Of a stretch of DNA of 64,000 nt, positions 5,473 through 36,558 are shown piece by piece. Source of the stretch: Thermoplasmata archaeon (lineage in GTDB: Archaea > Thermoplasmatota > Thermoplasmata > UBA10834); contig JAOTTD010000001.1 of assembly GCA_029864565.1 (NCBI GenBank), forward strand, positions 66,232-130,231, in the 5' to 3' direction. Each line of letters begins with the position of its first letter. Position 1 is the stretch's first letter. Position numbers and translations under genes: made by a program. Under the pieces are notes generated by a model that made no database searches, was not told the origin of the DNA, and saw nothing but the letters and a program-made list of their open reading frames with translations.

Positions 5473-6468
5473 TCACGGATACAGGTATTCACCTGAAGGC
5501 AGCTGTTGAGTGATGCAGTGAACGTCCCCTCCGCCGACGCCGATGTACTCGCATCTGACACCGACGATCTCGCGCTCCGGGCACAGAGAGGCGAGGATTT
5601 CATGAGCGATATCGTCCTCCCGGATTCCATAGGTCGGGAAGACCACCGCACCGTTGGCGAAGTAGAGGTTGGCATAGGCGGGGGTCACGGAGACCTCATC
5701 AACCATGATTGGCTTCGGCTGAACCGTCCTAACCACCTCCAGAGAGCGTCCTTTCGAGTCGGTAGCGGATTCCAGTCGAGCCATATTCGCCTCGAGACGC
5801 CTGTAATTCGGGTCAGACTCGTCATTCGTATGGGCCGCCAGTACGACGTGGGGCATGACGAACCCGGCGACTCCGTCGACATGGCCATCGGTCATGTCAT
5901 CCTCAAGGCCGTTGGGAAGCCAAACCACCTTTCGAACGCCCAGGTAACTGGCGAGGGTTTGCTCGATCTCCTCCCGCGACATGCCAGGATTGCGATTTGC
6001 GTTGAGCAGGCACTGCTCGGTCGTCAGCAGAGTGCCGGCGCCGTCGACGCTTATGGCACCACCCTCAAGTATCATTGGCGCTTCGTAAAGTCGTGTCCCC
6101 ATCCGCTCAGCGATCAGAGCTGGCAGTTTCTCGTCACGTTCCCAAGGTCCCTTGTTGCCCCAGGCGTTAAACTTGAAATCGACGACTGCGAGATTGTGGT
6201 CGTCATTGCGGACGAAGATAGGCCCGTTGTCCCTCGCCCACGAATCATCGAGCGCAGCCTCGAAGATCCTCGCACCCGGGCCGAGCCTCTCACGAGCCTC
6301 ACCAGAGACAGTGGGATCCGAAATGACAGTCACTGGGTCGAAGCGGTCTATCGCACCGACGACGGCGGAATACGCCCTCTTCGCGTCCTCGAAGTGTCCC
6401 TGCCATGTCTCCTCTCTGCACGGCCATGATATGAAACATCCTGCGTGTGGTTCCCATTCCGCCGGCAT
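5473..6468 (-). CDS. aguA: Agmatine deiminase
   Basis: MPAEWEPHAGCFISWP at the N-terminus and ...GGGDVHCITQQ at the C-terminus (catalytic Cys) are hallmarks of the PF04371 agmatine deiminase family. Confidence 0.9.
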   Translation of the reverse strand: MPAEWEPHAGCFISWPCREETWQGHFEDAKRAYSAVVGAIDRFDPVTVISDPTVSGEARERLGPGARIFEAALDDSWARDNGPIFVRNDDHNLAVVDFKFNAWGNKGPWERDEKLPALIAERMGTRLYEAPMILEGGAISVDGAGTLLTTEQCLLNANRNPGMSREEIEQTLASYLGVRKVVWLPNGLEDDMTDGHVDGVAGFVMPHVVLAAHTNDESDPNYRRLEANMARLESATDSKGRSLEVVRTVQPKPIMVDEVSVTPAYANLYFANGAVVFPTYGIREDDIAHEILASLCPEREIVGVRCEYIGVGGGDVHCITQQLPSGEYLYP

Positions 6469-6532
6469 GGAGAATCCGTCCTCTGCGGGCGTCCGTTTGG
6501 TTCCCTTGTTGTCGTCTGTCGATTTCGAGCCA

Positions 6533-7414
6533 TCACCTCCTCTCGTTCGTCAGAGCTCCGTACGTTCGTGGCTGACGGGTGTCCAAGAAACCGAAGAATG
6601 AGCGGGCATCCCGAATTCGTGACAAATCCAGGTCCGCGAACACGATCTCAGGACTGGCGGTGGACGCGCGTCTGATCACCTCACCCCAAGGGTCGGCGAC
6701 GAAGCTGCCTCCGTAGAAGTCTATCCTCTCCTCTTGACCGACACGGTTAACCGCAGCGATGAAGACCCGGTTCATTATCGCCTGCGCCCTCATGACGAGC
6801 TCCCATTCGGGGCGAGAATCGAATCCCGGCTGGATCAGCTCTGAGCCTATCGCGCTGGGGTATATCAGGAGCTCAGCGCCTCCGAGGGCCAACGATCTCG
6901 ACACCTCGGGGAACCATTGGTCCCAGCATATGCCAAGGCCGACGTTGACATCGCCCAGCCTTGCGACGACGTAACCGAGATCGCCTGATTCGAAGTACAG
7001 GTCCTCCCTGTATCCCTCGGCATCAGGGATGTGTATCTTCCGATATGATGCCCTGACGGCCCCATCCTTGTCTATCAGGGCTAGTGAGTTGTAGCTTCTC
7101 TTTGCATCGACGGCCTCTGCATACGGCAGCGCGACCGCGACATCTGATGCCTTTGAGGCTTCCCTGAATTCAGCGAGGAGCATCTTATGGTCGGGCAAGC
7201 CGCCTTTTCGGTCCTCGATGTCTGCGAACTGCCCGACGTACCTGTTCGAGAACAGCTCGGGCAGCACGCAGAGGTCCACATCGTTCGCTGATGACGCGGC
7301 CAGGGCACCCTTCGCGGCGGCGATGTTCTCCTCGGAATCGGCGGAGCACCGCATCTGGACAAGGCATATTCTGAATGCCTCCTTCGCATCGCCTGACAAT
7401 AGGCTCGACCCCAT
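6533..7414 (-). CDS. aguB: N-carbamoylputrescine amidase (CN-hydrolase/nitrilase superfamily)
   Basis: It shows a CN-hydrolase fold (RICLVQM..., DLCVLPELF, GICWDQWFPE). It lies immediately downstream of aguA on the same strand. Confidence 0.8.
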   Translation of the reverse strand: MGSSLLSGDAKEAFRICLVQMRCSADSEENIAAAKGALAASSANDVDLCVLPELFSNRYVGQFADIEDRKGGLPDHKMLLAEFREASKASDVAVALPYAEAVDAKRSYNSLALIDKDGAVRASYRKIHIPDAEGYREDLYFESGDLGYVVARLGDVNVGLGICWDQWFPEVSRSLALGGAELLIYPSAIGSELIQPGFDSRPEWELVMRAQAIMNRVFIAAVNRVGQEERIDFYGGSFVADPWGEVIRRASTASPEIVFADLDLSRIRDARSFFGFLDTRQPRTYGALTNERR

Positions 7415-11224: not shown

Positions 11225-12241
11225 TCACCTGCGGCCGACCTTGTGACAGGCGACGAAGTGCCCGTTCCCGATGTCTATCAGCTCGGGCTCGGTCTCCCTG
11301 CACACACCCATGGCAAGCGCGCATCTGGGATTGAACCTGCACCCCTTGGGCGGGTTCGTAGGGCTCGGAATCTCGCCCTCGATGCCCTTCTTCTCCGACC
11401 TCAGCTTCGGGTCGGGTATGGGGATGGAAGCTATGAGCGCCTGCGTGTACGGGTGCATCGCGTGCTTCAGGAAGACATCGGCGGGCGCGAGTTCCACGAT
11501 CTTGCCCAGATACATGACCGCGATCCTGTCGCTCATGTGCCCGACGACCGAAAGGTCGTGAGATATGAACAAGTAGCTCAGGCCGAGCTTCGCCTGCAGC
11601 CCCTTGAGCAGGTTAAGTGCCTGCGCCTGGACCGATACGTCCAAGGCTGAGGTCGGTTCATCAAGTACTATGAAATCGGGATCGAGCGCGAGCGCCCTGG
11701 CAAGGGCAATTCTCTGTCTCTGGCCTCCGCTGAACTCGTGAGGCAGCCTCGACAGATGATCGTGCGACAGGCCGACCTGTTCTATCAGCACGTGGATGCG
11801 CTCCCTCCTTGCGACGTTCGGATCCTTGGCACCCTCGGGAGGGCCGTGGATCGCAAACCCCTCGCCCACGATGCGCTCGACCGTTATCCTCGGATCGAGA
11901 CTTGAGTACGGGTTCTGAAAGACTATCTGCATCCTCTTCCTCATTGCCCTTAGCTCTCTTCCGGTAAGCTTCATGACGTCCTTCTGGTCGAAGACCACCT
12001 TGCCACTTGTCGGCTCCACCAGCCTGAGAATCGCCCTGCCAACGGTCGTCTTGCCGCATCCGCTCTCCCCCACGAGTCCGAGGGTCTCGCCTCTCATGAC
12101 GGACAGGCTGACGCCGTCCACCGCGTGCACGTGCCCGACCACCTTCCCGAATACACCCTTCTTGACCGGGAAGAACTTCACCAGATCCTCGACCTGAATG
12201 AGAGGTTCACTGAGGCTTGCAGGCATGGCATCATTATCCAT
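11225..12241 (-). CDS. Peptide ABC transporter ATP-binding protein (OppF/DppF-like)
   Basis: It has Walker A (GESGCGKTT), the signature LSGGQRQR and Walker B (LDEPTSALD). The C-terminal oligopeptide-ABC tail is Cys-rich ([11 protein letters not shown]). The start is set at MDNDAM, overlapping the upstream ATPase. Confidence 0.85.
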
Positions 12242-24308: not shown

Positions 24309-25748
24309 ATGGCAGTCGCACGAATCAGATTCTTAGACCAGGACGAAGAGGAGCTCATACACCAGCAAAGCATAGAGTGCCTCGAGACAATTGGAGTGAA
24401 GGTCAAGAGCGAACGAGTCCTCGGCATGCTGAAAGAGGCCGGGGCGGCCGTAGAACCGAAGACTCAAGTGGCCAGGCTGCCAGAGAGCATGATTGAGGCC
24501 GCATTATCCAATGTTCCGAAAAGGATGATTCTGCACGGAAGGGATCCCAAGAACGACATGAGGATACCTGTCACTTCATGGCCGTACGTTGGCACATCGG
24601 GACTTGCCACATACATAATCGACGTCAAGACGGGAAAGAAGCGCGATTCGACAGTCAAGGACATCGCCGACTGCGTCAAGCTTGCCGACGGCCTGTCCGG
24701 CGTCGACTACACACAGACCTCCTTGACCGCGACGGAGGTTCCTCAGCAGACCCACGGCCTGCACGAGCTCTGGACCGCCCTGCAAAACACCACCAAGCAC
24801 GTCCAGGGCATCGAAATATTCGACGCAGAGGACGCTCGGAAGCAGGTCGAACTCGGAGCGCTGGTTGCGGGCGGCGAGGAAGAGCTGGACAAGAGGCCGC
24901 ACTTTACGGTCATTCACTGCTCGATTGCTCCGCTCATGTTCGAGCATGACGCTGTCGAGGCGATGGTCGAGTTCGCAATGGCTGGTGTGCCCATCACGAC
25001 GATGTCGATGTCACTCTCTGGTGGAACAGCACCTGTCACTCTTGCAGGAACGCTGGTGAACGCCAACTCGGAGAATCTGGCCAGCTTCGTGATTGGCCAG
25101 GCTGCGAGGAAGGGTGCGCGAACCGTATACTGCTCGTCCTCCACGCCGGTCAACATGAGCACCGGCATGATACACTACCAGAGCGCCAACCAGCCGCTGA
25201 TAGCGGCTGGGCTAGCCCAGATGGCTCGACGGTACGGCCTCCCTTGCATGGTCGGCGATTGGGGCCTCAATGACACGGATGTCCCAGGATTTCCGCACAC
25301 ATTCAGCGAGACCATGGGGATTGCACTCAGCACTATGTCTGGAACGGACATGATGGGAGGCGTTGGGTCGCTGGACAACGCCAAGGGCATGGCGCTCGAG
25401 CAGGAAGTCATCGACTCCTACGTCTGGGAGAATGTGCGGATGCAGATGACTCCTTTTGAGATCAGCAAGGCGACCGCTGCACTCGATGTGATTAGGGAGG
25501 TCGGGCACGGCAACACATTCCTCACCAACATCCACACCGCACGCAACTTCCGAAGGGAGGCTATCCAAAGAGACTCTGACAAGGGCAGGTTCGAATCCAC
25601 CATGTCTAAGGCGATGGTCGCGGAGGCAAAGGAAATCGCGGTGAGGCTCCTCAGGGAGCACGAGGTTACGCCGTTGGAGGAATCCGTCGTCCGGCAGGGC
25701 AACGAGCTGATAAAGAACTTCGAAAAGGAACGGATCAGACGCGCGTAA
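24309..25748 (+). CDS. MttB-superfamily (trimethylamine methyltransferase-like, COG5598) methyltransferase, non-pyrrolysine
   Basis: The 479-aa ORF is continuous with no in-frame amber. It shows MttB-family similarity along its whole length. The sizes and gene order match MtgB/MtpB-type quaternary-amine:corrinoid methyltransferases. Confidence 0.8.
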   Translation: MAVARIRFLDQDEEELIHQQSIECLETIGVKVKSERVLGMLKEAGAAVEPKTQVARLPESMIEAALSNVPKRMILHGRDPKNDMRIPVTSWPYVGTSGLATYIIDVKTGKKRDSTVKDIADCVKLADGLSGVDYTQTSLTATEVPQQTHGLHELWTALQNTTKHVQGIEIFDAEDARKQVELGALVAGGEEELDKRPHFTVIHCSIAPLMFEHDAVEAMVEFAMAGVPITTMSMSLSGGTAPVTLAGTLVNANSENLASFVIGQAARKGARTVYCSSSTPVNMSTGMIHYQSANQPLIAAGLAQMARRYGLPCMVGDWGLNDTDVPGFPHTFSETMGIALSTMSGTDMMGGVGSLDNAKGMALEQEVIDSYVWENVRMQMTPFEISKATAALDVIREVGHGNTFLTNIHTARNFRREAIQRDSDKGRFESTMSKAMVAEAKEIAVRLLREHEVTPLEESVVRQGNELIKNFEKERIRRA

Positions 25749-28283: not shown

Positions 28284-28476
28284 GGTAATCGAAACACCAT
28301 TCGGCGCCGGCGTATTTATATGCCATTTTCTCGTTGACTTCGAAGTCAACGTCTCTGGCTAGGCATCGCTTCCGCAGTTCTCACGCGTCGTCAGAAGCCG
28401 ACGTTCAGAAGCCGTTGGCTGAGCAGACAAGAATCTAATACCGCCACGTGGTTTCCTCATGACGGGTACCTGCGAG

Positions 28477-29523
28477 ATGTCGGAACGTCCTTCGAGAAAC
28501 ACGATTCATCGCATATTGGTGGGCAATTCACAGGAGATGAAGGAGGTCGAGTCGGCGTCCGTCGACCTCGTGGTGACCTCTCCGCCATACCCGATGATTG
28601 AGATGTGGGACGAGACCTTTTACCTGCTCAACAGAGACATAAGAGGGAGGATGCGGCAGGACGACGGGAGGGGTGCCCACGAACTGATGCATGATGAGCT
28701 CGACGCGGTGTGGAGAGAGGCCGATCGCGTGCTAAAGGACGGGGCCGTTGCATGCATCAACATCGGAGACGCCACCAGGACCATCGGAAGCCAGTTCCAG
28801 CTCTTCCCGAACCACACACGTGTGACTGAGCGATTCCGAGAGCTTGGATTCTTCAGCCTGCCATCCATCATCTGGAGGAAGCCCACAAACGCGCCGAATA
28901 AGTTCATGGGGTCTGGCATGCTTCCGCCAGGAGCGTACGTTACTTTGGAGCATGAGCACATCCTCGTATTCAGGAAGGGAGAGAGGCGGCGATTCGCTTC
29001 GGAGGCCGAGAAGGCCAACAGGAACGAGAGCGCCTTTTTTTGGGAGGAGAGAAACCTGTGGTTCTCGGATGTATGGACGAATCTCCGAGGAGTCAGTCAG
29101 AAGCTCGACCGCGACAATATCAGGAGGAGGAGTGGTGCGTTTCCGTTCGAGCTGCCGTACAGGCTAATCAATATGTACTCGGCGAAGCTCGACGTCGTAC
29201 TAGACCCGTTCCTCGGAACAGGGACAACGACGCTTGCGGCCATCGCATCCGCGAGGAACAGCATCGGGTATGAGATGGAGGGAGCCCTGCTTGGAGTTGT
29301 GAAAGAGAGGCTCGCCGGATTCGAGGACATCGCCAACGATTACATCGGCTGTAGGATCGCCGCACATAACGAGTTCGTCGCAGGACGGGATTGCGGGTTC
29401 GCCAACGAGCCTCACGGCTTCCGATGCACGAGCGCTCAGGAGACGGGCATGAGGTTCGATCACTTGGACTCCGTGGACGCGGCCGACCTCACAAACATCA
29501 GGGCCGTCTACAGTGAACTCTGA
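28477..29523 (+). CDS. DNA methyltransferase, N6-adenine/N4-cytosine (beta class), apparently orphan
   Basis: Motif IV (SPPYP) is N-terminal and motif I (DPFLGTGTT) is C-terminal, which is the beta-class order of PF01555. A C-terminal extension of about 100 aa is present. No restriction-endonuclease-like ORF is adjacent. Confidence 0.8.
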   Translation: MSERPSRNTIHRILVGNSQEMKEVESASVDLVVTSPPYPMIEMWDETFYLLNRDIRGRMRQDDGRGAHELMHDELDAVWREADRVLKDGAVACINIGDATRTIGSQFQLFPNHTRVTERFRELGFFSLPSIIWRKPTNAPNKFMGSGMLPPGAYVTLEHEHILVFRKGERRRFASEAEKANRNESAFFWEERNLWFSDVWTNLRGVSQKLDRDNIRRRSGAFPFELPYRLINMYSAKLDVVLDPFLGTGTTTLAAIASARNSIGYEMEGALLGVVKERLAGFEDIANDYIGCRIAAHNEFVAGRDCGFANEPHGFRCTSAQETGMRFDHLDSVDAADLTNIRAVYSEL

Positions 29524-29531
29524 CGATGGAT

Positions 29532-31433
29532 TCAGTTGTCGCTCGAACTCACGACAGGCGGACTCGCCGTGATCGGAGCCGAGTGCGCATGACCCCCAGA
29601 TTCTGGCCAGCGTTCGAACACGTGTTCGAGCTTGTCGAGGATCATGTACGAGAGACCTCCGAGTAGCCCGATCATGACTGCTTGTGGTATAAACATCCAC
29701 CACCAGCCGCTAATGAGCCCGCCTTCGTTGTACGCATCGGTTATCACGCTAGCCCAACCCACGTCGATCAAGTCGCGGATGGAGAACATGAAGTTGCCGT
29801 GAGGAAGTAGCATCTCAACCATAACTGCGGACAAGAACCCGAACAAGACGACGAACTTGGTGATGTGCAGCGACCTGGCAATCACTCCAGGAAGGGGCAT
29901 CGTCGCGGCTCCCTCACGAATCTCCGATGCTATCTCGGCCAGAAGCGTCCTTGTAGCTTCGGCCTTGGCAAATGGCGCGGAAATCCAAGCAATGAACATA
30001 ACGATAAAAAGGGCGATAGAACTGCCCGTCAGGACCCCGGCGATTGACGACAATAAGAATATCAGCGCGATGAACACATCCGCGAGAATCCATACTACCC
30101 AGCTTATGGACCGCACCATCGTGATGTCGAGTCTCCTCGCGTAGCCACCGACAAAAGTGCTCGACATTCCTACCACCAGCGCTAGCGCGGCCACAATTAT
30201 CACGATGGAGATAGAATCCGCGGAATCGTACAGCAACATGCTATAGATGTCGCGACCCAAAGAATTGGTACCGAGTGGGTGAATTACCCCAGAGTCCGGC
30301 GATGGGCTAAGAGATGGCTCTGCAAGGATATCTCCCATTAATGAACTCGGGTCATATGGGTCCTTCACTGTTGCCAGCAAAGGCGCAAGAAGTGAGATCA
30401 CTATCAATAGAATGAAAGCCGCCATAGCGCACATGCCGGTCCGGCTCTTCCTGTATGCAGCCCACACACGCCTGATGGTCAGAAGGTTGATGTGCGTTCT
30501 AAATCCGGCGCGACGCCTACTAGTCTCAGCCTTCTCAGGCAAATGTCGCACGGAATGCGGTCCGGAAGCGAGAATGATTGTGATATCGAGAACGAGAAAC
30601 ATAATCAGCATAATCGAGCTTACAATGAATGCGCATGCCATGAAGACCGGGGGATCATACATTATTGAGCGGAACATCACGGCTCCAATCCCATCATATC
30701 TGGCGAGCGATTCAATCGCGAGAACGGAGGTCATCACAAGCGCGAGGAAGAATGACATTACTGCGGCGGTTCGCGACGTCGCCATAGCTCTCAAGGTGCG
30801 CCTCATGAAATTCACGCTCCGATCGGAGGACATAGGACGTACCACCCTCTCGAACACGAGGACAGCCGCGGCTGCGATGGATATCATGCAGGAGAGGAAA
30901 AGCGCTAATTCAAGGACACTTTCGACAGCGAGATCAGACCATTCATTAACCGCTAAGGTGAAGGCGAAGTATAACACGACGACCGGGAAGACGGCTAGAA
31001 CCAAGGCCACTACCCGCATGATCCTTCCGGGCGCACCTCCCAGGCGTCTTTCGGCCAGCCACGCGTAGCCGAATCCGGCGACGATAACAAAGGCGGTGAC
31101 GACAATCAACCGCACGGCAGTCGCGAAGACATCGTGGTAGATGAAATCGGAAGTTGATTCAAGAGGCCGCACGCCAGCAGATAGGAAGAATTCGCCCGAG
31201 ATCATCTTAACCATGAAATTGATGTATTGATCCCCTCTCGGTTCGCCAATCTTGAGGTCATCGAGTATGGCTTCGGTTCGGACGTCGGGGTCCAAAGGCC
31301 GCAGCCTTGCTTCATCGCCGACGACAAAGAACATCAGGTAGGTCAGCGTCAGAACCAGGAACACCGCTACGAGGAAGACCACTATCCTGCCAGCTATCAA
31401 GAGAAGGGTATTCCTATCCAAGGTCGCCACCAC
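29532..31433 (-). CDS. Fused polytopic ABC-type permease (DppB-like + DppC-like halves), no cognate ATPase or binding protein adjacent
   Basis: The protein is 633 aa with roughly 12 TM segments. The second half begins with the OppC-type N-terminal signature (DPYDPSSLMGDILAEPS...LGTNSLGRDIYSML). The first half resembles DppB. It is divergent from the canonical permeases at 13-15 kb. Confidence 0.55.
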   Translation of the reverse strand: MVATLDRNTLLLIAGRIVVFLVAVFLVLTLTYLMFFVVGDEARLRPLDPDVRTEAILDDLKIGEPRGDQYINFMVKMISGEFFLSAGVRPLESTSDFIYHDVFATAVRLIVVTAFVIVAGFGYAWLAERRLGGAPGRIMRVVALVLAVFPVVVLYFAFTLAVNEWSDLAVESVLELALFLSCMISIAAAAVLVFERVVRPMSSDRSVNFMRRTLRAMATSRTAAVMSFFLALVMTSVLAIESLARYDGIGAVMFRSIMYDPPVFMACAFIVSSIMLIMFLVLDITIILASGPHSVRHLPEKAETSRRRAGFRTHINLLTIRRVWAAYRKSRTGMCAMAAFILLIVISLLAPLLATVKDPYDPSSLMGDILAEPSLSPSPDSGVIHPLGTNSLGRDIYSMLLYDSADSISIVIIVAALALVVGMSSTFVGGYARRLDITMVRSISWVVWILADVFIALIFLLSSIAGVLTGSSIALFIVMFIAWISAPFAKAEATRTLLAEIASEIREGAATMPLPGVIARSLHITKFVVLFGFLSAVMVEMLLPHGNFMFSIRDLIDVGWASVITDAYNEGGLISGWWWMFIPQAVMIGLLGGLSYMILDKLEHVFERWPESGGHAHSAPITASPPVVSSSDN

Positions 31434-31539
31434 CCACCAGGTTCTCGGCTAGTCGCACCTTCACTAATCAGGGCTAGGGCTAATAAGAATTCCCATGGAT
31501 TACCTGTCAAGGATGACATCGCTGCATAGCGGTGAGATG

Positions 31540-32934
31540 CTAAGGTTTGTCAAGTTCCGATGGCTCCAGCTTCAAGCCGATGGCAGCCATGTCCCGCTTG
31601 TACCTCTTGATGAGCGCGGCGTATTCCTTGCTCGGCCTCCTCTTCGTGGCGTTCCAGCACTCCTGGAGCGGCTTGCCGAGAGGCGGCGATGTGAGCTTGC
31701 GCTCGTACTTCTTCAGCAGCTTCTTGGCCATCTCGTTCGCGTCGGACCGCTTCATCCCAGCGACGGCGTGTCCTACCTCGGCCGATATCCTCGGCTCGAC
31801 CGGCGTTACACGATCCTCGTACTTGTTCGTCGCGACCCCGACAGATTCCATCGACAATCCGGAGACGACGGCGGCCATGACAGAGGCGGATGTCTCGTAC
31901 AGGCACATTGGCGTGCACGGACCCGCTGCAGTGTAGTTGAGGCTTATGCTGAGCAGATCGGTGTTTCTGCTTATCGCCTGCCCCATTGTGCTGATGGTCC
32001 ACAGCATCTCCCTGCTGCTGTTGGATACGTAGCGGAGATGCAGAGGGAACGGTATGAGATAGCTCGTCTGCAGCGTGAGCACGCCCATCAGGTGCGTCGC
32101 CACCGTCCCGACCGCAGTGCCCTCGGGTCCGCCCGAGTAACCCCCCAGCAACGGCGAGAAGTCCATACCGATCGGAGCGCCAATAGAATGCGCGATGACA
32201 GCCTTGTTCAGCCTGGCGAAGTCTACCTTCATAGGGTCCATGCTGGCAATCATGAATCCGTCGGACGGTCTGAGGCCGAACCTCGGATGAACAGCCGCGG
32301 CGAGCGATACGTCGGACTCCGCCGTTGCGAGCGTGTTCATGAAGGGCTTGCCCTCCCGGCCCACTCGATTGCACGCCTCCCTGCCCAATGTGGCGTTCCT
32401 CATCGTCGCATAGAGCTCCAGAGGCGAAGCGGGTCTCACACGCATTCCGCTGACCCTAGTTAGCGCGGGCGTGGTAATCGAGTTGGTCTGCGGTATCTCC
32501 GCGAAGCCTTCCATCAGCGTCAGGAACGACTCGTCACTGGAGACTGGCCCTCCGGCAGCCCCCAACAGGCACCATGGCGGTGTCTTGTCCCCGATCTTCC
32601 TGGGGACCATCGCTTTCCTGTCACGGCCTTCACCGAAGAACACCTTGGATGGCGCGTTCCGCAATGCCTCGCGCACTTCGGATTCGGTAAAGGATATCAC
32701 CCTGCTGCTGTCCATACAGTACGCGCCCACATCGACCAAGAGTTCGAGGCCTGCCTCGAAAAGGTCGTCTGCGATGGAGTTTTCGTTCGGGATCGGATTC
32801 TCCGAATCGAACTCTATCTTGTACTCCCTGACCTTCTCCGCCACCTTGGGGGCGTATCTCCTCAGCTGATAGTCGTTCTCACTCAACGGAACGCCGTTGA
32901 GAGCCTTCTCCATGACATCGAGTACTTGCACCAT
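31540..32934 (-). CDS. Monomethylamine methyltransferase MtmB homolog, full-length, without pyrrolysine
   Basis: Blocks match MtmB along the full length: DDLFEAGLELLVDVGAYCMDSSRV, GEGRDRKAMVPRKIGDKTPPW, LGGYSGGPEGTAVGTVATHLMGVL, AGPCTPMCLYETSAS and GKPLQECWNATKRRPSKEY. The frame is uninterrupted over 464 codons. ATG at 32934 follows a GGGGGA RBS. Confidence 0.8.
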   Translation of the reverse strand: MVQVLDVMEKALNGVPLSENDYQLRRYAPKVAEKVREYKIEFDSENPIPNENSIADDLFEAGLELLVDVGAYCMDSSRVISFTESEVREALRNAPSKVFFGEGRDRKAMVPRKIGDKTPPWCLLGAAGGPVSSDESFLTLMEGFAEIPQTNSITTPALTRVSGMRVRPASPLELYATMRNATLGREACNRVGREGKPFMNTLATAESDVSLAAAVHPRFGLRPSDGFMIASMDPMKVDFARLNKAVIAHSIGAPIGMDFSPLLGGYSGGPEGTAVGTVATHLMGVLTLQTSYLIPFPLHLRYVSNSSREMLWTISTMGQAISRNTDLLSISLNYTAAGPCTPMCLYETSASVMAAVVSGLSMESVGVATNKYEDRVTPVEPRISAEVGHAVAGMKRSDANEMAKKLLKKYERKLTSPPLGKPLQECWNATKRRPSKEYAALIKRYKRDMAAIGLKLEPSELDKP

Positions 32935-33006
32935 CACATATCCCCCTGGCTCCTAAGGCCGAACACGACAGAGCTTGTACGAGATAAAACCTTTGTCATC
33001 CAGGGT

Positions 33007-33774
33007 TCAAAACAGGATCGAAAGACATGTGAGCGCGCCGTCGCACTTCTCAAATTCGCTGACATCCACGGGTATCACTTTGAACCCGGCGCTCTCCACC
33101 AGGCGCTGCGATTCCCTGCGGCCCGCTGGCATGAGGACGGTGTCGTCGATTGCGAGGGTGTCGGCGGCGTACTCCTCCCCCTTTGGGACGACGATGACGT
33201 CCATGCCACGCAAAGCGGGATGGTTTGAGTACTTCTCCGTGGCTATGAGGGTCCCCTCTCCGAGGTAGGTCACGTGACTCTTCAGATGCATCATCTCCTC
33301 ATCCTCGATCGCATCGACCTTCACAGCGAGCCACTCACCCATCAGACGGATCCCTTCGGCGTTCGTACGCTGGCTCAGACCGCTGATCAGGCGATCGGGA
33401 AGATGCACGACGTCGCCTCCTTCCACAGTCGCAGGAGCCTCAGCCCGCCTGGTGGAGAGGTAGTCCTCCAGCTTAGCCTCCACCGCGTCTTCCTCTCCCC
33501 TCCGACTGGGCGCGCCCATCCGGGTGATGAGCGCCTTTGGCCCATGCACAACTGCGCAGTCCTCGACGAAACACGAATCCGGGTGAAAGTCATCCTGCGG
33601 AAGCACGATGACTTCCAGGCCGAGGTCTGCGAGGATCGCTTTGTAGACCGCATGCTGCTCGCGAGCTTTCTTCAGGTCTACCGTGCCGCGCATCGGATGG
33701 CATGACAGACATTTGACATAGTTCGCACCCGGAGGGCGGATGAGCGCCTTTCTGTACTTCATGATTATCACCAA
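33007..33774 (-). CDS. Dimethylarginine dimethylaminohydrolase (DDAH)-like amidinohydrolase (guanidino-group modifying superfamily)
   Basis: At 255 aa, the C-terminal ...KCDGALTCLSILF matches the DDAH catalytic-Cys motif (G-x-L-T-C-C/L-S). The N-terminal half resembles DDAH/amidinotransferase. It lies 72 nt upstream of the MtmB-like gene. Confidence 0.65.
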   Translation of the reverse strand: MVIIMKYRKALIRPPGANYVKCLSCHPMRGTVDLKKAREQHAVYKAILADLGLEVIVLPQDDFHPDSCFVEDCAVVHGPKALITRMGAPSRRGEEDAVEAKLEDYLSTRRAEAPATVEGGDVVHLPDRLISGLSQRTNAEGIRLMGEWLAVKVDAIEDEEMMHLKSHVTYLGEGTLIATEKYSNHPALRGMDVIVVPKGEEYAADTLAIDDTVLMPAGRRESQRLVESAGFKVIPVDVSEFEKCDGALTCLSILF

Positions 33775-33802: not shown

Positions 33803-34231
33803 TCAATCCCGGCCCTTCTGCTCGGCCTTCGCCTCCTTCTTCAGCCTCTTCTCCTCGGCCTTCGCCTTCTTCTTTACAGCCTTGCTGTCGGGTTCCTTCA
33901 CTCGTGGCAGCTCCGAGGGCGGTGCCTGGGGCGCCGGCCGTTTCTCGGCGGAATCCACGGGCTTTTCGTATGCGACGGAAAGCTGGCTGTCGCGGGCCGA
34001 TGGCTCGGACGCCTCCTCATCGGTAACCCTCGCAGCAATCAGCCGCCAGGCCAGAAGCAACACTAGGACGAACAGCCCAACCCCGAGGAAGGTCAGAAGG
34101 TACCACGGCTTCGGCTCCATGACCGCATAGATTATGGCGATAACCGCTGCGGCTATGAGCCCTCCCAACACCTTCTTGAACACGTCCTTTGTGTCCTCTC
34201 CTGTCCAGGGCATCGCGATGGCGAATGCCAT
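33803..34231 (-). CDS. Small membrane protein with Lys/Glu-rich C-terminal tail
   Basis: Two TM helices are followed by ...KKKAKAEEKRLKKEAKAEQKGRD. It lies 28 nt upstream of the DDAH-like gene. Confidence 0.45.
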   Translation of the reverse strand: MAFAIAMPWTGEDTKDVFKKVLGGLIAAAVIAIIYAVMEPKPWYLLTFLGVGLFVLVLLLAWRLIAARVTDEEASEPSARDSQLSVAYEKPVDSAEKRPAPQAPPSELPRVKEPDSKAVKKKAKAEEKRLKKEAKAEQKGRD

Positions 34232-34301: not shown

Positions 34302-35414
34302 ATGCTTAAGAGAGATATCAACCGCGCCGTGGAACAGTCAACCAGGAGACTCTTCAAGGTTGCGGTCCCGCCCGTGAAGTTCTGGCTCCTGACCTATGTG
34401 ATGGGGAAAGGCATTGAGGATCACGAGGTGCAGAAGGCTCTGGAAGAAACCAAGAAGTACGGTCCTAGGGTGAAGTTGCTCGACAAGCTCAGGGAGGACG
34501 GAACCTGGCCAATCTCGAGTCAGAGGAAGGCGGAGGAGAATGCCGGTCCTGGACCGCCGTACGGCTGGACATACATCACCATGCTCAGAAATCTGTTCTG
34601 GCTCATCGAGTACTGCGCGGACCCCGATGAGGGATACATCGAGGAATCCCTGGACAAGATACTATCATGGCAGGATGACGAGGGGTTCATCAAGGGGCCA
34701 ATGGATGACATGATACCCCGGCCCCACTACAACGGGTTCGCGTTGGCGGTCCTGAGAGGATTCGGCAGGAAACGAACGGAGCCCGGAATAAGCCGGATAG
34801 CGGACTGGCTCTTCCGAAGCCAACGTGCCGACGGCGGCTGGAACATCCCGTACCTCCAAGATATGCGGTACCTTCCCGAGTACAAGTCCATGAAGCTTGG
34901 GAAATTCAAGGAGATGGTCAGCCAGGGCAAGACAGTCGAGTACGCAGCCGAGGATTATGATCATATCCCGAGCTGCTATTGGACCACGGTCGGCGTTCTC
35001 AGGGGCTTGGGGTGGATTCCGAGTCACGAGCGCATCAACGACTCGAGGCGCGGCGGGAGCTTCGTTCTCAACGGCTTCTTCAAGAGGAACTATCATCCGG
35101 GATTCTACAAATCTGAGATCAACTGGAGGGTCCTCAAGTTCCCTACATACTACGGGAGTGGATTGACTGCCCTCGACTCCCTTGTCTACTTGGGTTTCGG
35201 GCCGGAGGAACATAGAATGGAAATGCCCATTAGATGGCTCCTCAGCGCCCGAGCGAAAGACGGTTTCTGGTACCAGACCGAACGCCCACACGCTCTGAAT
35301 GACCAGTGGCTCACAGTCGTAACATTGTGTGTTCTTTCGTTCTACTCGAGAGACCGAGGACAGTGGGCAATGAGTGAGACGGAGGGCCCATTATACCAGC
35401 TCAGAGTGCAGTGA
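34302..35414 (+). CDS. Alpha/alpha-toroid repeat protein (prenyltransferase / squalene-cyclase-like DGxW repeats)
   Basis: Repeated xDGxW motifs are present (REDGTWPIS, DDEGFIKG, RADGGWNIPY, AKDGFWYQTE). The function is not assignable. Confidence 0.45.
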   Translation: MLKRDINRAVEQSTRRLFKVAVPPVKFWLLTYVMGKGIEDHEVQKALEETKKYGPRVKLLDKLREDGTWPISSQRKAEENAGPGPPYGWTYITMLRNLFWLIEYCADPDEGYIEESLDKILSWQDDEGFIKGPMDDMIPRPHYNGFALAVLRGFGRKRTEPGISRIADWLFRSQRADGGWNIPYLQDMRYLPEYKSMKLGKFKEMVSQGKTVEYAAEDYDHIPSCYWTTVGVLRGLGWIPSHERINDSRRGGSFVLNGFFKRNYHPGFYKSEINWRVLKFPTYYGSGLTALDSLVYLGFGPEEHRMEMPIRWLLSARAKDGFWYQTERPHALNDQWLTVVTLCVLSFYSRDRGQWAMSETEGPLYQLRVQ

Positions 35415-36558
35415 TTTCCTCCCTGACATCGAGATGCTTCGCCGGCAGCCTCGAGACATATTTCTCGACTGGCAATTGCTCGGGCACCAGCACGCCCTTG
35501 TCTGATATCTCACCCGACAGCATCATCTCGGCCGCGACCGCGCCTCCGGTCCCGACGAAATAGCCGGTGGCGTTGCTCTTCGCAAGCTCGTAGGCCTTCT
35601 CGTGCGACATCGTGGACCACACCTTGGCCTGAACCCTCTTACCGTCCTTCTGCCCTATAACCTCCACGACAATTCCCGCGAACCCTTTCACCTTGCCAAT
35701 CATGTCCACGGGTCGCGGCATCAGGGATACGACAACATCCAATGGGCGCACCTTCACCCCCTTGACATCGATTGGCTTCAGACTGTGCAACCCCAGCTTG
35801 CGGAGGGTGTTGACTACATGGACGAAATTGTCGTCGACAGCGATTCTGAAGTCTGCGTACTTCAGCCCGTCGATGAACTGAGACATCAGGAACGTCTCCT
35901 CATGGACGGTGTTGTACACCGGTAGCGGTCCCACTGGTTCCGGGAAGTCATACATCTGCCTCTCGCTCAGCGGAGGGACATAAGTCATCTTCCCATCCTT
36001 GTACACGGCCGCGGGCACGGTCACCTCCTCGATCATCTCTGCGGGCGACCAAAGACTGAAGAAATCGTAGCCTTCGGCCACCGCGCTGTCACCGTCCATG
36101 ACCCGGGCGCTCTCGGCGCTGTCGAGCTTGTTCGCGGCGTAGCGGGCGAATATGTCCGATATGCCGGGGTCCGCGCCCATGGATGTCAGTATTGTGACGC
36201 CGCGGTCCTTGCTCTTACGGTCCATCTCCTCGAACTCCTCCATTGAATTGACCGACATAGAGTAGTCGATGTAGTCGATTCCAAGCTCAATCGACATCTC
36301 GATGACCTTCTTGTTCAGCTCGGCAGGGATGGAACTTATCAGCAACTCGCTGCCTGTCAGAAGCTTGCGGAGTGCCCGCGCATCGGTCGCGTCGACCTTC
36401 TCAACAGATATCTTGCTGCTATCCAACCGCTTCGCCATGGCATCCGCGGCGTCTGTCCGCGCATCGGCCAAAACAATATTGTCTACTTGTCGGTTCTTCG
36501 CGAGGTGTTCAGCGCACACAAGCCCAGTTATTCCGCATCCTAGTTGCACCAATTTCAT
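35401..36558 (-). CDS. Saccharopine dehydrogenase-family NAD(P)-binding oxidoreductase
   Basis: An N-terminal Rossmann motif (MKLVQLGCGITG) is present. The 385-aa length and overall pattern match the Sacchrp_dh family, which includes carboxy(nor)spermidine and lysine dehydrogenases. Confidence 0.6.
   Translation of the reverse strand: MKLVQLGCGITGLVCAEHLAKNRQVDNIVLADARTDAADAMAKRLDSSKISVEKVDATDARALRKLLTGSELLISSIPAELNKKVIEMSIELGIDYIDYSMSVNSMEEFEEMDRKSKDRGVTILTSMGADPGISDIFARYAANKLDSAESARVMDGDSAVAEGYDFFSLWSPAEMIEEVTVPAAVYKDGKMTYVPPLSERQMYDFPEPVGPLPVYNTVHEETFLMSQFIDGLKYADFRIAVDDNFVHVVNTLRKLGLHSLKPIDVKGVKVRPLDVVVSLMPRPVDMIGKVKGFAGIVVEVIGQKDGKRVQAKVWSTMSHEKAYELAKSNATGYFVGTGGAVAAEMMLSGEISDKGVLVPEQLPVEKYVSRLPAKHLDVREEITAL

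Follow-up and report, generated by a model that had tools for sequence, protein, structure and literature searches.

The 64,000-nucleotide stretch analyzed here (the window; contig JAOTTD010000001.1 of assembly GCA_029864565.1, positions 66,232 to 130,231) comes from a Thermoplasmata archaeon, and its gene content (e.g., TBP, L15e, PolB, Pus10) is archaeal. Three genes on its minus strand are considered: a DDAH-family gene, a homolog of the monomethylamine methyltransferase gene mtmB that does not encode pyrrolysine (Pyl), and a permease-like fusion gene. An earlier interpretation made from the letters of the window (the sequence-only reading) described these open reading frames (ORFs) as lying head to tail, and their coordinates and the gaps between them (exactly 72 and 106 nt) are correct. 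The first (33007..33774, minus strand) encodes a DDAH-family (pentein-fold) amidinohydrolase of 255 aa when counted from the TTG at 33774, with the ATG at 33762 being the likelier start. The second (31540..32934, minus strand) encodes a Pyl-free MtmB-family TIM-barrel methyltransferase homolog of the Thermoplasmata clade that we call A-type, with 464 aa from a conserved ATG at 32934; residue numbers given below for this protein follow the 465-aa ORF that starts at 32937 (31540-32937). The third (29532..31433, minus strand) encodes a divergent 633-aa single polypeptide joining a DppB-like and a DppC-like half, an accessory insertion at this locus. The motifs quoted for these proteins (GALTCLSILF, DDLFEAGLELLVDVGAYCMDSSRV, and GKPLQECW...KEY) were all found in the translations, and the family calls for the three genes are borne out by profile or alignment matches. 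The original observation is confirmed, while the interpretation built upon it is supported only in part.

The MtmB homolog is full-length, as had been proposed. It matches PF05369 with 324.3 bits, well over the family cut-off of 25, along model positions 1-450 of 450, and it aligns with MtmB of Methanosarcina barkeri (1L2Q/1NTH) at E=5e-68, collinear over 449 residues (7-455), a match that settles its fold. An exhaustive homolog search returned 222 mostly full-length clusters (50% identity clustering, E<1e-30), and the close relatives of the window protein comprise 120+ clusters at 72-91% identity. The nearest representative outside the Thermoplasmata is only about 41% identical, and the window clade is therefore distinct. 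Genomic context was compared across 59 loci encoding close relatives, nearly all from Thermoplasmata metagenome-assembled genomes (MAGs), several of which carry two copies. In a neighbour-joining tree the family splits into two clades, A and B, with clade A containing the window subclade together with L026 and L010, L011, L014 and L017 (locus numbers are used only where loci must be told apart). The window protein is 83-92% identical to its subclade orthologs, making it the best-conserved gene of the neighbourhood. By these sequence comparisons it is a member of the known Pyl-free branch of the MtmB superfamily, within a Thermoplasmata-specific clade. No MtmB paralogs or amber-split copies were detected within the window by tblastn.

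The absence of an in-frame UAG was likewise verified, the reading frame being open across all codons. In the alignment, the position of Pyl202 (UAG) in the M. barkeri enzyme is occupied by Met200 (ATG, 32338..32340, minus strand), and the window protein thus lacks the residue that defines a strict Pyl-dependent MtmB. The Met-Asn pair at this former Pyl site is invariant in 57/57 aligned Thermoplasmata homologs, which excludes a sequencing error as the cause of the missing amber codon. Of the 44 genes in the window, 9 end in UAG, among them the one for the MtmB homolog, so this codon serves as an ordinary stop here. Searches for tRNA genes (including tRNA-Pyl) and Rfam structured RNAs gave no match anywhere in the 64-kb window.

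The remodelling of the active site extends beyond the Pyl position. In addition to their collinearity, the window protein shares Tyr335 and the surrounding G-P motifs with M. barkeri MtmB1, and differs from it by the replacements Pyl202 to Met200, E205 to Ala, E229 to Met, E259 to Asp and Q333 to Leu. The M. barkeri residues E205, E229, E259, Q333 and Y335, whose identities were confirmed in the 1L2Q sequence, are presumably those around the Pyl adduct, and Glu259 is reported to touch the Pyl-methylammonium adduct. Among the Thermoplasmata counterparts, E205 is replaced by Ala or Ser, E229 by Met and Q333 by Leu, Y335 is kept, and E259 has become Asp in clade A or Cys in clade B. The five adduct positions in the window protein (Ala, Met, Asp, Leu, Tyr) do not preserve the acidic and polar set of a strict Pyl-MtmB. 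Its pocket is composed of Met200, Met229, Met258, Phe228, Phe260, Leu333 and Tyr335 plus one carboxylate, Asp259 (codon at 32161..32163, minus strand), which is invariant as Asp throughout clade A just as Cys is invariant in clade B. This exchange of an acidic cradle for the Pyl adduct with a Met/aromatic pocket speaks against an MtmB-style handling of free methylamine.

The two clades differ in a patterned way around the same site. Clade A has Phe228, Ala231/Ser232/Asp259, Ser261 and Ser332, whereas clade B has Tyr228, Cys231/Cys232/Cys259, Gly261 and Asn332. Fixed A-versus-B differences are enriched in the 29 pocket columns chosen around the former Pyl site, with 5 of 20 falling in 29 of 465 columns (odds ratio 5.8, p=0.005). 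B-type proteins (e.g., L140 in CP070736, L039 and L020; these carry the mtmB annotation in MAGs of Ca. Gimiplasmatales and relatives, PMC11264602) share genomes with A-type proteins and are 65-75% identical to them, and both keep the Met-Asn motif, Met229, Met258, Leu333 and Tyr335. B-type genes follow a corrinoid-protein gene and encode a Cys-rich pocket, while the A-type gene of the window follows the DDAH gene and encodes the Ala231/Ser232/Asp259 combination. Each genome therefore appears, from these sequence differences, to hold two paralogs of differing specificity. The three cysteines of the B-type homologs (231, 232 and 259; e.g., L140:8656-10035, L039, L020) are invariant and lie around the former Pyl site. 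The methanol methyltransferase MtaB binds Zn through a Glu/Cys/Cys site, and by analogy a metal ion could replace Pyl as the activating group in the Cys-bearing B-type homologs.

The sequence-only reading had also reported that the window holds no corrinoid protein, second methyltransferase (MT2) or activase, and this is upheld: the best tblastn match to a corrinoid protein in the 64 kb has E=0.18, none was found in the reachable flanking contig (approximately 8 kb), and Pfam scans of the window ORFs returned no RamA, URO-D-type MT2 or pyl genes. Across the sampled loci, neighbour clustering and tblastn place a corrinoid protein (~220 aa, DxHxxG, PF02607+PF02310) directly upstream of the MtmB homolog, on the same strand, in ~43 of 59. 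Clade B genes are always adjacent to a corrinoid gene and clade A genes never are; in the window subclade, DDAH fills the upstream slot held elsewhere by the corrinoid gene. The corrinoid-MtmB junctions of clade B span 0-5 nt versus the 72-nt spacer between the DDAH and MtmB genes. At two loci (L043 and L052) the corrinoid-protein and MtmB-homolog frames are joined in ORFs of 705 and 664 aa (ends at approximately 11386-11392), which may represent a natural corrinoid-methyltransferase fusion or just an upstream extension of the ORF.

The complete 1.42-Mb chromosome CP070736 shows how A-type and B-type genes are arranged in one genome. It carries a locus syntenic with the window (L141: small membrane protein, DDAH, MtmB, DNA methylase, beta-propeller, ArsR, MttB) and, approximately 0.5 Mb away, an EamA-MttB-MttB-corrinoid-MtmB operon (L140). 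CP070748 likewise carries two loci, L051 and L039. Since the DDAH-MtmB locus and the corrinoid operon coexist in this closely related chromosome, the corrinoid carrier is most simply supplied in trans. By analogy with these relatives, the carrier of the window organism is most likely encoded in trans as well, and the methyl acceptor, which had previously been left without a candidate, is largely accounted for by the corrinoid gene adjacent to MtmB homologs in most loci and by this second operon. A Pyl-free MttB-superfamily homolog in the same conserved neighbourhood of the window (24309..25748, plus strand, 479 aa) shows a parallel arrangement. It matches PF06253 with 216 bits and TIGR02369 with 369 bits, under the latter's cut-off of 525, and its counterparts in L001, L003 and L051 lie in synteny with 85-91% identity. 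Neither it nor the MtmB homolog adjoins a corrinoid gene, in keeping with a carrier shared in trans.

Pyl-free members of the MtmB superfamily and mtmB genes of Thermoplasmata are already known. Kashyap et al. 2026 (PMC13044021) presented a tree of 1,061 MtmB-family sequences, many of them non-Pyl, and MtqB of Methanococcoides methylutens Q3c, a tetramethylammonium/choline:corrinoid methyltransferase, is the sole non-Pyl MtmB homolog with a known substrate (PMC13044021). Studies of MAGs list mtmB, mttB and corrinoid genes (mttC) in non-methanogenic Thermoplasmata and propose methylotrophy, noting that the same organisms lack Mcr, Pyl genes and MT2 (PMC11264602; bioRxiv 10.1101/2020.03.09.984617). 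The window protein resembles MtqB, compared here on its published description, in being a full-length MtmB-family protein without Pyl, with a sulfur- and aromatic-rich pocket and, probably, a corrinoid partner. The two differ in that MtqB adjoins its corrinoid protein MtqC in a methanogen with MT2 and Mcr, whereas DDAH occupies that slot in the window and no corrinoid gene lies in its 64 kb. MtqB itself (ACT9XH_RS04775) was not identified among the homolog hits; the names of ten representatives were Bathyarchaeota, Thermoleophilia, Spirochaetes or unnamed. The non-Pyl MttB enzymes (MtgB, MtcB, MtpB, MtyB) offer a second comparison, since they reuse a Pyl scaffold without Pyl for charged donors together with a corrinoid protein, although they belong to the PF06253 fold family rather than PF05369 (the window member being the homolog at 24309-25748). 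The claim that the locus is novel holds in one respect, as no link of DDAH to corrinoid methyltransferases or to archaea was found in the searched literature, and falls in the other, as the existence of Pyl-less MtmB homologs is not new.

The reading that we favour, with a probability of roughly 0.55 as a whole, is that the locus consists of two real, separately conserved enzymes lying side by side plus one accessory gene, and is not a dedicated three-gene operon. By analogy with MtqB and the non-Pyl MttB enzymes, the A-type MtmB homolog would most likely methylate a Co(I) corrinoid protein from a methylated amine that is already positively charged. The carrier would come in trans from the paralogous EamA-MttB-MttB-corrinoid-MtmB (B-type) operon, with the A-type (Asp259) and B-type (Cys231/Cys232/Cys259) proteins probably taking different donors and sharing that carrier. 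DDAH would act on free N-omega-substituted arginines released by extensive proteolysis, and the fused permease would be accessory.

The consistent separation of clade A from corrinoid genes, together with a pocket remodelled relative to clade B, might instead indicate that the A-type proteins have left corrinoid chemistry altogether for a corrinoid-independent role, for example as a binding protein or another TIM-barrel enzyme. We consider this very improbable, since the A-type proteins retain 65-75% identity to the corrinoid-linked B-type along with the shared pocket residues (Met-Asn, Met229, Met258, Leu333, Tyr335), are under very strong purifying selection, and occur in genomes that retain the corrinoid operon. 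The MttB homolog, which similarly stands apart from any corrinoid gene and fits a trans carrier, argues in the same direction.

The DDAH-like protein passes the Pfam thresholds for DDAH_eukar (PF19420; 38.7 bits, cut-off 23) and ADI (PF02274; 33.7 bits, cut-off 22.8) and matches DDAH of Pseudomonas aeruginosa (3RHY/1H70) over its full length with E=5e-44, which places it within the DDAH/amidinotransferase group as had been suggested. It falls below the NCBIfam cut-offs for dimethylargininase (NF045660, 182.2 bits versus 340; NF045658, 168.7 bits versus 450), and judged by these scores it is a clear homolog that stops short of a certified dimethylargininase equivalog. The likeness to the P. aeruginosa enzyme amounts to 35% identity over the full length of approximately 254 aa, with all checked catalytic and substrate residues retained (L18, D60, F63, E65, D66, R85, E114, R132, H162, C249); the window protein differs in being archaeal, in having Cys in place of Ile243, and in scoring under the equivalog cut-offs. 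Its predicted catalytic triad is Glu118/His163/Cys250, corresponding to E114, H162 and C249. The DDAH copies keep all checked catalytic and arginine-binding residues, and their divergence tracks that of the methyltransferase. From this conservation, the window enzyme most likely hydrolyses free N-omega-substituted arginines to citrulline and an amine. The earlier suggestion that this citrulline is recycled by argG/argH is not supported; these genes are 28 kb away and there is no evidence of linkage.

A small membrane protein of 142 aa with a Lys-rich tail is encoded on the same strand 28-40 nt upstream of DDAH (33803..34231, minus strand). It belongs to a cluster (C21) that precedes DDAH in the subclade loci, no TATA-like box lies between the two genes, and the transcript carrying DDAH probably begins with this upstream gene. 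The spacer between DDAH and the MtmB homolog has a different character. It contains a conserved BRE/TATA-like box, AAAGGTTTTATCTC (32981..32994, minus strand), approximately 54 nt upstream of the MtmB ATG, followed by a Shine-Dalgarno-like run, GGAG...GGGGG, at ~32942-32953. Among the subclade spacers the box remains conserved where the bases on either side of it diverge, and similar TTTATC boxes occur 28-54 nt upstream of other first-in-operon genes of the window. A strict promoter pattern, RAARNTTTAW, proved too narrow (one match) and was replaced by inspection of the regions upstream of all genes. We infer from its position and conservation that the box is a promoter, and the MtmB homolog appears to have a promoter of its own. 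The co-oriented cluster described by the sequence-only reading thus stands as an arrangement of genes with the gaps given above, but not as a conserved unit, both because of this promoter-like box and because only 3 of 13 subclade loci have the permease gene.

The association between DDAH and methyltransferase genes has to be weighed separately from the operon question. The gene immediately upstream of the A-type gene is DDAH in 11 of 11 window-subclade loci (the window, L001-L009 and L051), in L060/L061 and in L026. After the corrinoid protein, it is the second-widest recurring neighbour of the MtmB homolog, found in four clade groups. The sequence-only reading explained the pairing by a pathway in which DDAH frees mono- or dimethylamine from methylarginines and the Pyl-free MtmB homolog moves the methyl group to a corrinoid, and several observations count in favour of such a link and against our separation of the two enzymes. 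The other flanks of L026 are wholly unlike those of the window subclade, and DDAH is still next to the A-type gene there. DDAH is also found 2.2 kb upstream of a corrinoid-MtmB (B-type) pair in L045, L046, L053 and L055, divergent from a corrinoid-MtmB-MtmB operon in L068, and just downstream of non-Pyl MttB homologs in L065-L076 and L136. This reappearance beside B-type operons and MttB homologs is a hint that chance alone is not at work. The Asp259 side chain takes the place of Glu259 and could bind a cation with N-H groups (methylammonium or guanidinium), which would favour the original pathway idea, and MtqB shows trace monomethylamine activity (PMC13044021). Our own reading has two further soft points: the trans corrinoid operon is taken from relatives by analogy, coverage of the organism's own 132-kb contig being the 64 kb plus ~8 kb, and what the members of the clade do is predicted from sequence.

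Several lines of evidence make the pathway nevertheless quite unlikely. Non-polar residues stand in the places of Pyl, E205, E229 and Q333 here, so the known chemistry of free-methylamine activation is absent. Among DDAH-anchored metagenome loci, 67 of 80 have no methyltransferase within ~6 kb, and the most constant partner of DDAH is a divergent class-III aminotransferase. As a control, unrelated families (M28 peptidase, nitroreductase-like and C9) were seen to recur around the MtmB homolog too, in three clade groups versus four for DDAH, and residual synteny explains much of the signal. The promoter-like box conserved between the two genes also stands against it. Treating the DDAH/methyltransferase arrangements as fully independent events was weakened by neighbours that they share (clusters C156, C39, C82, C9, C8 and C11); because these other neighbours are held in common, several of the arrangements are not independent. 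What survives of the proposal is that the association recurs; that it exceeds background synteny is not clear. The existence of a real shared DDAH-methyltransferase pathway in any form is, in our estimation, doubtful. In the reading that we favour, the DDAH-MtmB adjacency is ancestral to clade A, and the salvage of methylated amino-acid derivatives may be what the two genes have in common.

Three side observations concern DDAH. In L005 (CP070732) and L046, the DDAH gene beside the MtmB homolog looks disrupted or truncated and the MtmB homolog is intact, an indication that DDAH is not strictly required by the methyltransferase. In freshwater-sediment contigs (L067, L069 and L075; e.g., L069:3062-6756), DDAH recurs in a co-oriented trio with genes for a non-Pyl MttB homolog and for a polytopic membrane protein of 387 aa without a Pfam match. 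Finally, the divergent pairing of DDAH with a class-III aminotransferase (PF00202) is nearly universal in other Thermoplasmata (L064, L068, L077, L079, L080, L083, L085, L088, L089 and L059), which suggests a module for the catabolism of arginine or ornithine derivatives that is independent of methyltransferases.

The pocket of the A-type protein also admits an account in which it directly demethylates a methylated guanidino or amino-acid compound, such as N-methylarginine or another methylated residue derived from protein, whose charged methyl-N group would stand in for the Pyl adduct, with DDAH working on the same pool in parallel or downstream. The substitution of small Met200 for bulky Pyl, the lone carboxylate of Asp259 in a hydrophobic pocket, and the fact that clades A and B differ specifically at pocket positions are all in keeping with such substrate mimicry. 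The proteolytic character of the organism (C11, S8 and M28 peptidases, Opp, AOR, aminotransferases) is as well, and mimicry has been proposed for non-Pyl MttB and MtmB enzymes (PMC13044021). The idea that the DDAH linkage is specific to the Asp259 pocket was rejected, because B-type (Cys259) operons, whose enzymes have no Asp259, are also near DDAH. Neutral guanidine is a poor leaving group, and this too tells against a purely inferential account that we regard as a very long shot.

The permease gene is the accessory member of the locus. The sequence-only reading had described a single-chain DppB-DppC fusion without an ATPase or binding protein beside it, and both points were reproduced: the two halves are collinear with DppB and DppC (E=4e-5 for the N-half against DppB, E=1e-21 for the C-half against DppC), and the gene is flanked by those for the MtmB homolog and a DNA methylase. 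The protein resembles the DppB/DppC (OppB/OppC) importers in these collinear halves and in a GTD..GRD(I/V)(Y/F)S motif. It differs from them in that the halves are fused, no BPD_transp_1 core is detected, both EAA loops are lost, and genes for an ATPase or a binding protein are not found next to it. In the Pfam scan, OppC_N alone exceeded its cut-off (27.4 bits versus 23.9) and BPD_transp_1_N stayed below its own; there was no BPD_transp_1 match, and the precomputed Pfam annotation of orthologs consists of PF12911 only or nothing. In the loops, the DppB-type EAA segment carries an 11-residue deletion and the DppC-type AxGAS...LPN motif is lost.

Permease orthologs are only 32-34% identical, versus 83-89% for MtmB in the same genome pairs, and the gene evolves approximately three times faster than its neighbours. 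Its family numbers about 8 clusters in 5.8 billion proteins and is confined to a few Thermoplasmata contigs; a 100%-identical entry is named 'hypothetical protein OEM29_00455'. A cluster in L020 and L022 (C38) that had been taken for the same fused permease was not one, as there it encodes PKD domains together with DppC inside an ordinary SBP5-DppB-DppC operon. The permease gene of the window is a lineage-restricted, fast-evolving insertion whose ATPase coupling has probably been lost, and no core partner of the two enzymes; it may be a decaying or repurposed transporter. The syntenic order of the subclade is consistent with an insertion: in most loci the DNA methylase gene lies directly downstream of the MtmB homolog, and in the window the permease gene is placed between the two. 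The window methylase is of the N6/N4 type with no obvious restriction partner (28459-29523, plus strand). A canonical five-gene Opp system is present elsewhere in the window, at 11.2-16.9 kb.

The wider surroundings of the locus are rich in genes for peptide and arginine metabolism. The peptide-catabolic genes of the window include those for two C11 peptidases, an S8 peptidase, two M28 peptidases, a complete Opp system, AOR and aminotransferases. Taken together with the upstream contig (L144), window positions 113-22948 form a proteolysis island of approximately 45 kb with 3-4 clostripain-like C11 peptidases, a 1088-aa S8 subtilase, two M28 peptidases and an M42 peptidase beside the complete Opp system. 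Tandem genes at 5473-7414 on the minus strand encode an agmatine deiminase (PAD_porph) and an N-carbamoylputrescine-amidase-like CN hydrolase, and a gene of the saccharopine/carboxyspermidine-dehydrogenase family (35401-36558) is syntenic with the DDAH locus. These genes suggest that arginine-to-polyamine metabolism is encoded near the DDAH locus.

Hundreds of clusters of non-Pyl MtmB homologs exist and only one member has a known substrate. The Thermoplasmata clade described here occurs in abundance in anoxic soils and sediments, and anaerobic methylotrophy in archaea has been attributed to it with no substrate assigned. It can now be approached by experiment, with two pocket types per genome, probably a single carrier, and a tie to DDAH that narrows the candidate methyl donors; the pieces most worth testing are the DDAH association and the switch in pocket between A-type and B-type proteins. 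We think it unlikely that DDAH and the Asp259-bearing A-type protein constitute an undescribed route for harvesting the methyl groups of protein-derived methylarginines in Pyl-less, non-methanogenic Thermoplasmata, via methylamine or by direct demethylation of a methyl-guanidinium, onto a shared corrinoid protein encoded in trans. If this were true, it would represent Pyl-independent methylamine-type methyl transfer and a first physiological role for an archaeal DDAH. A functional DDAH link would tie the turnover of protein methylation to C1 metabolism; otherwise, the locus would represent an orphan member of a known family.

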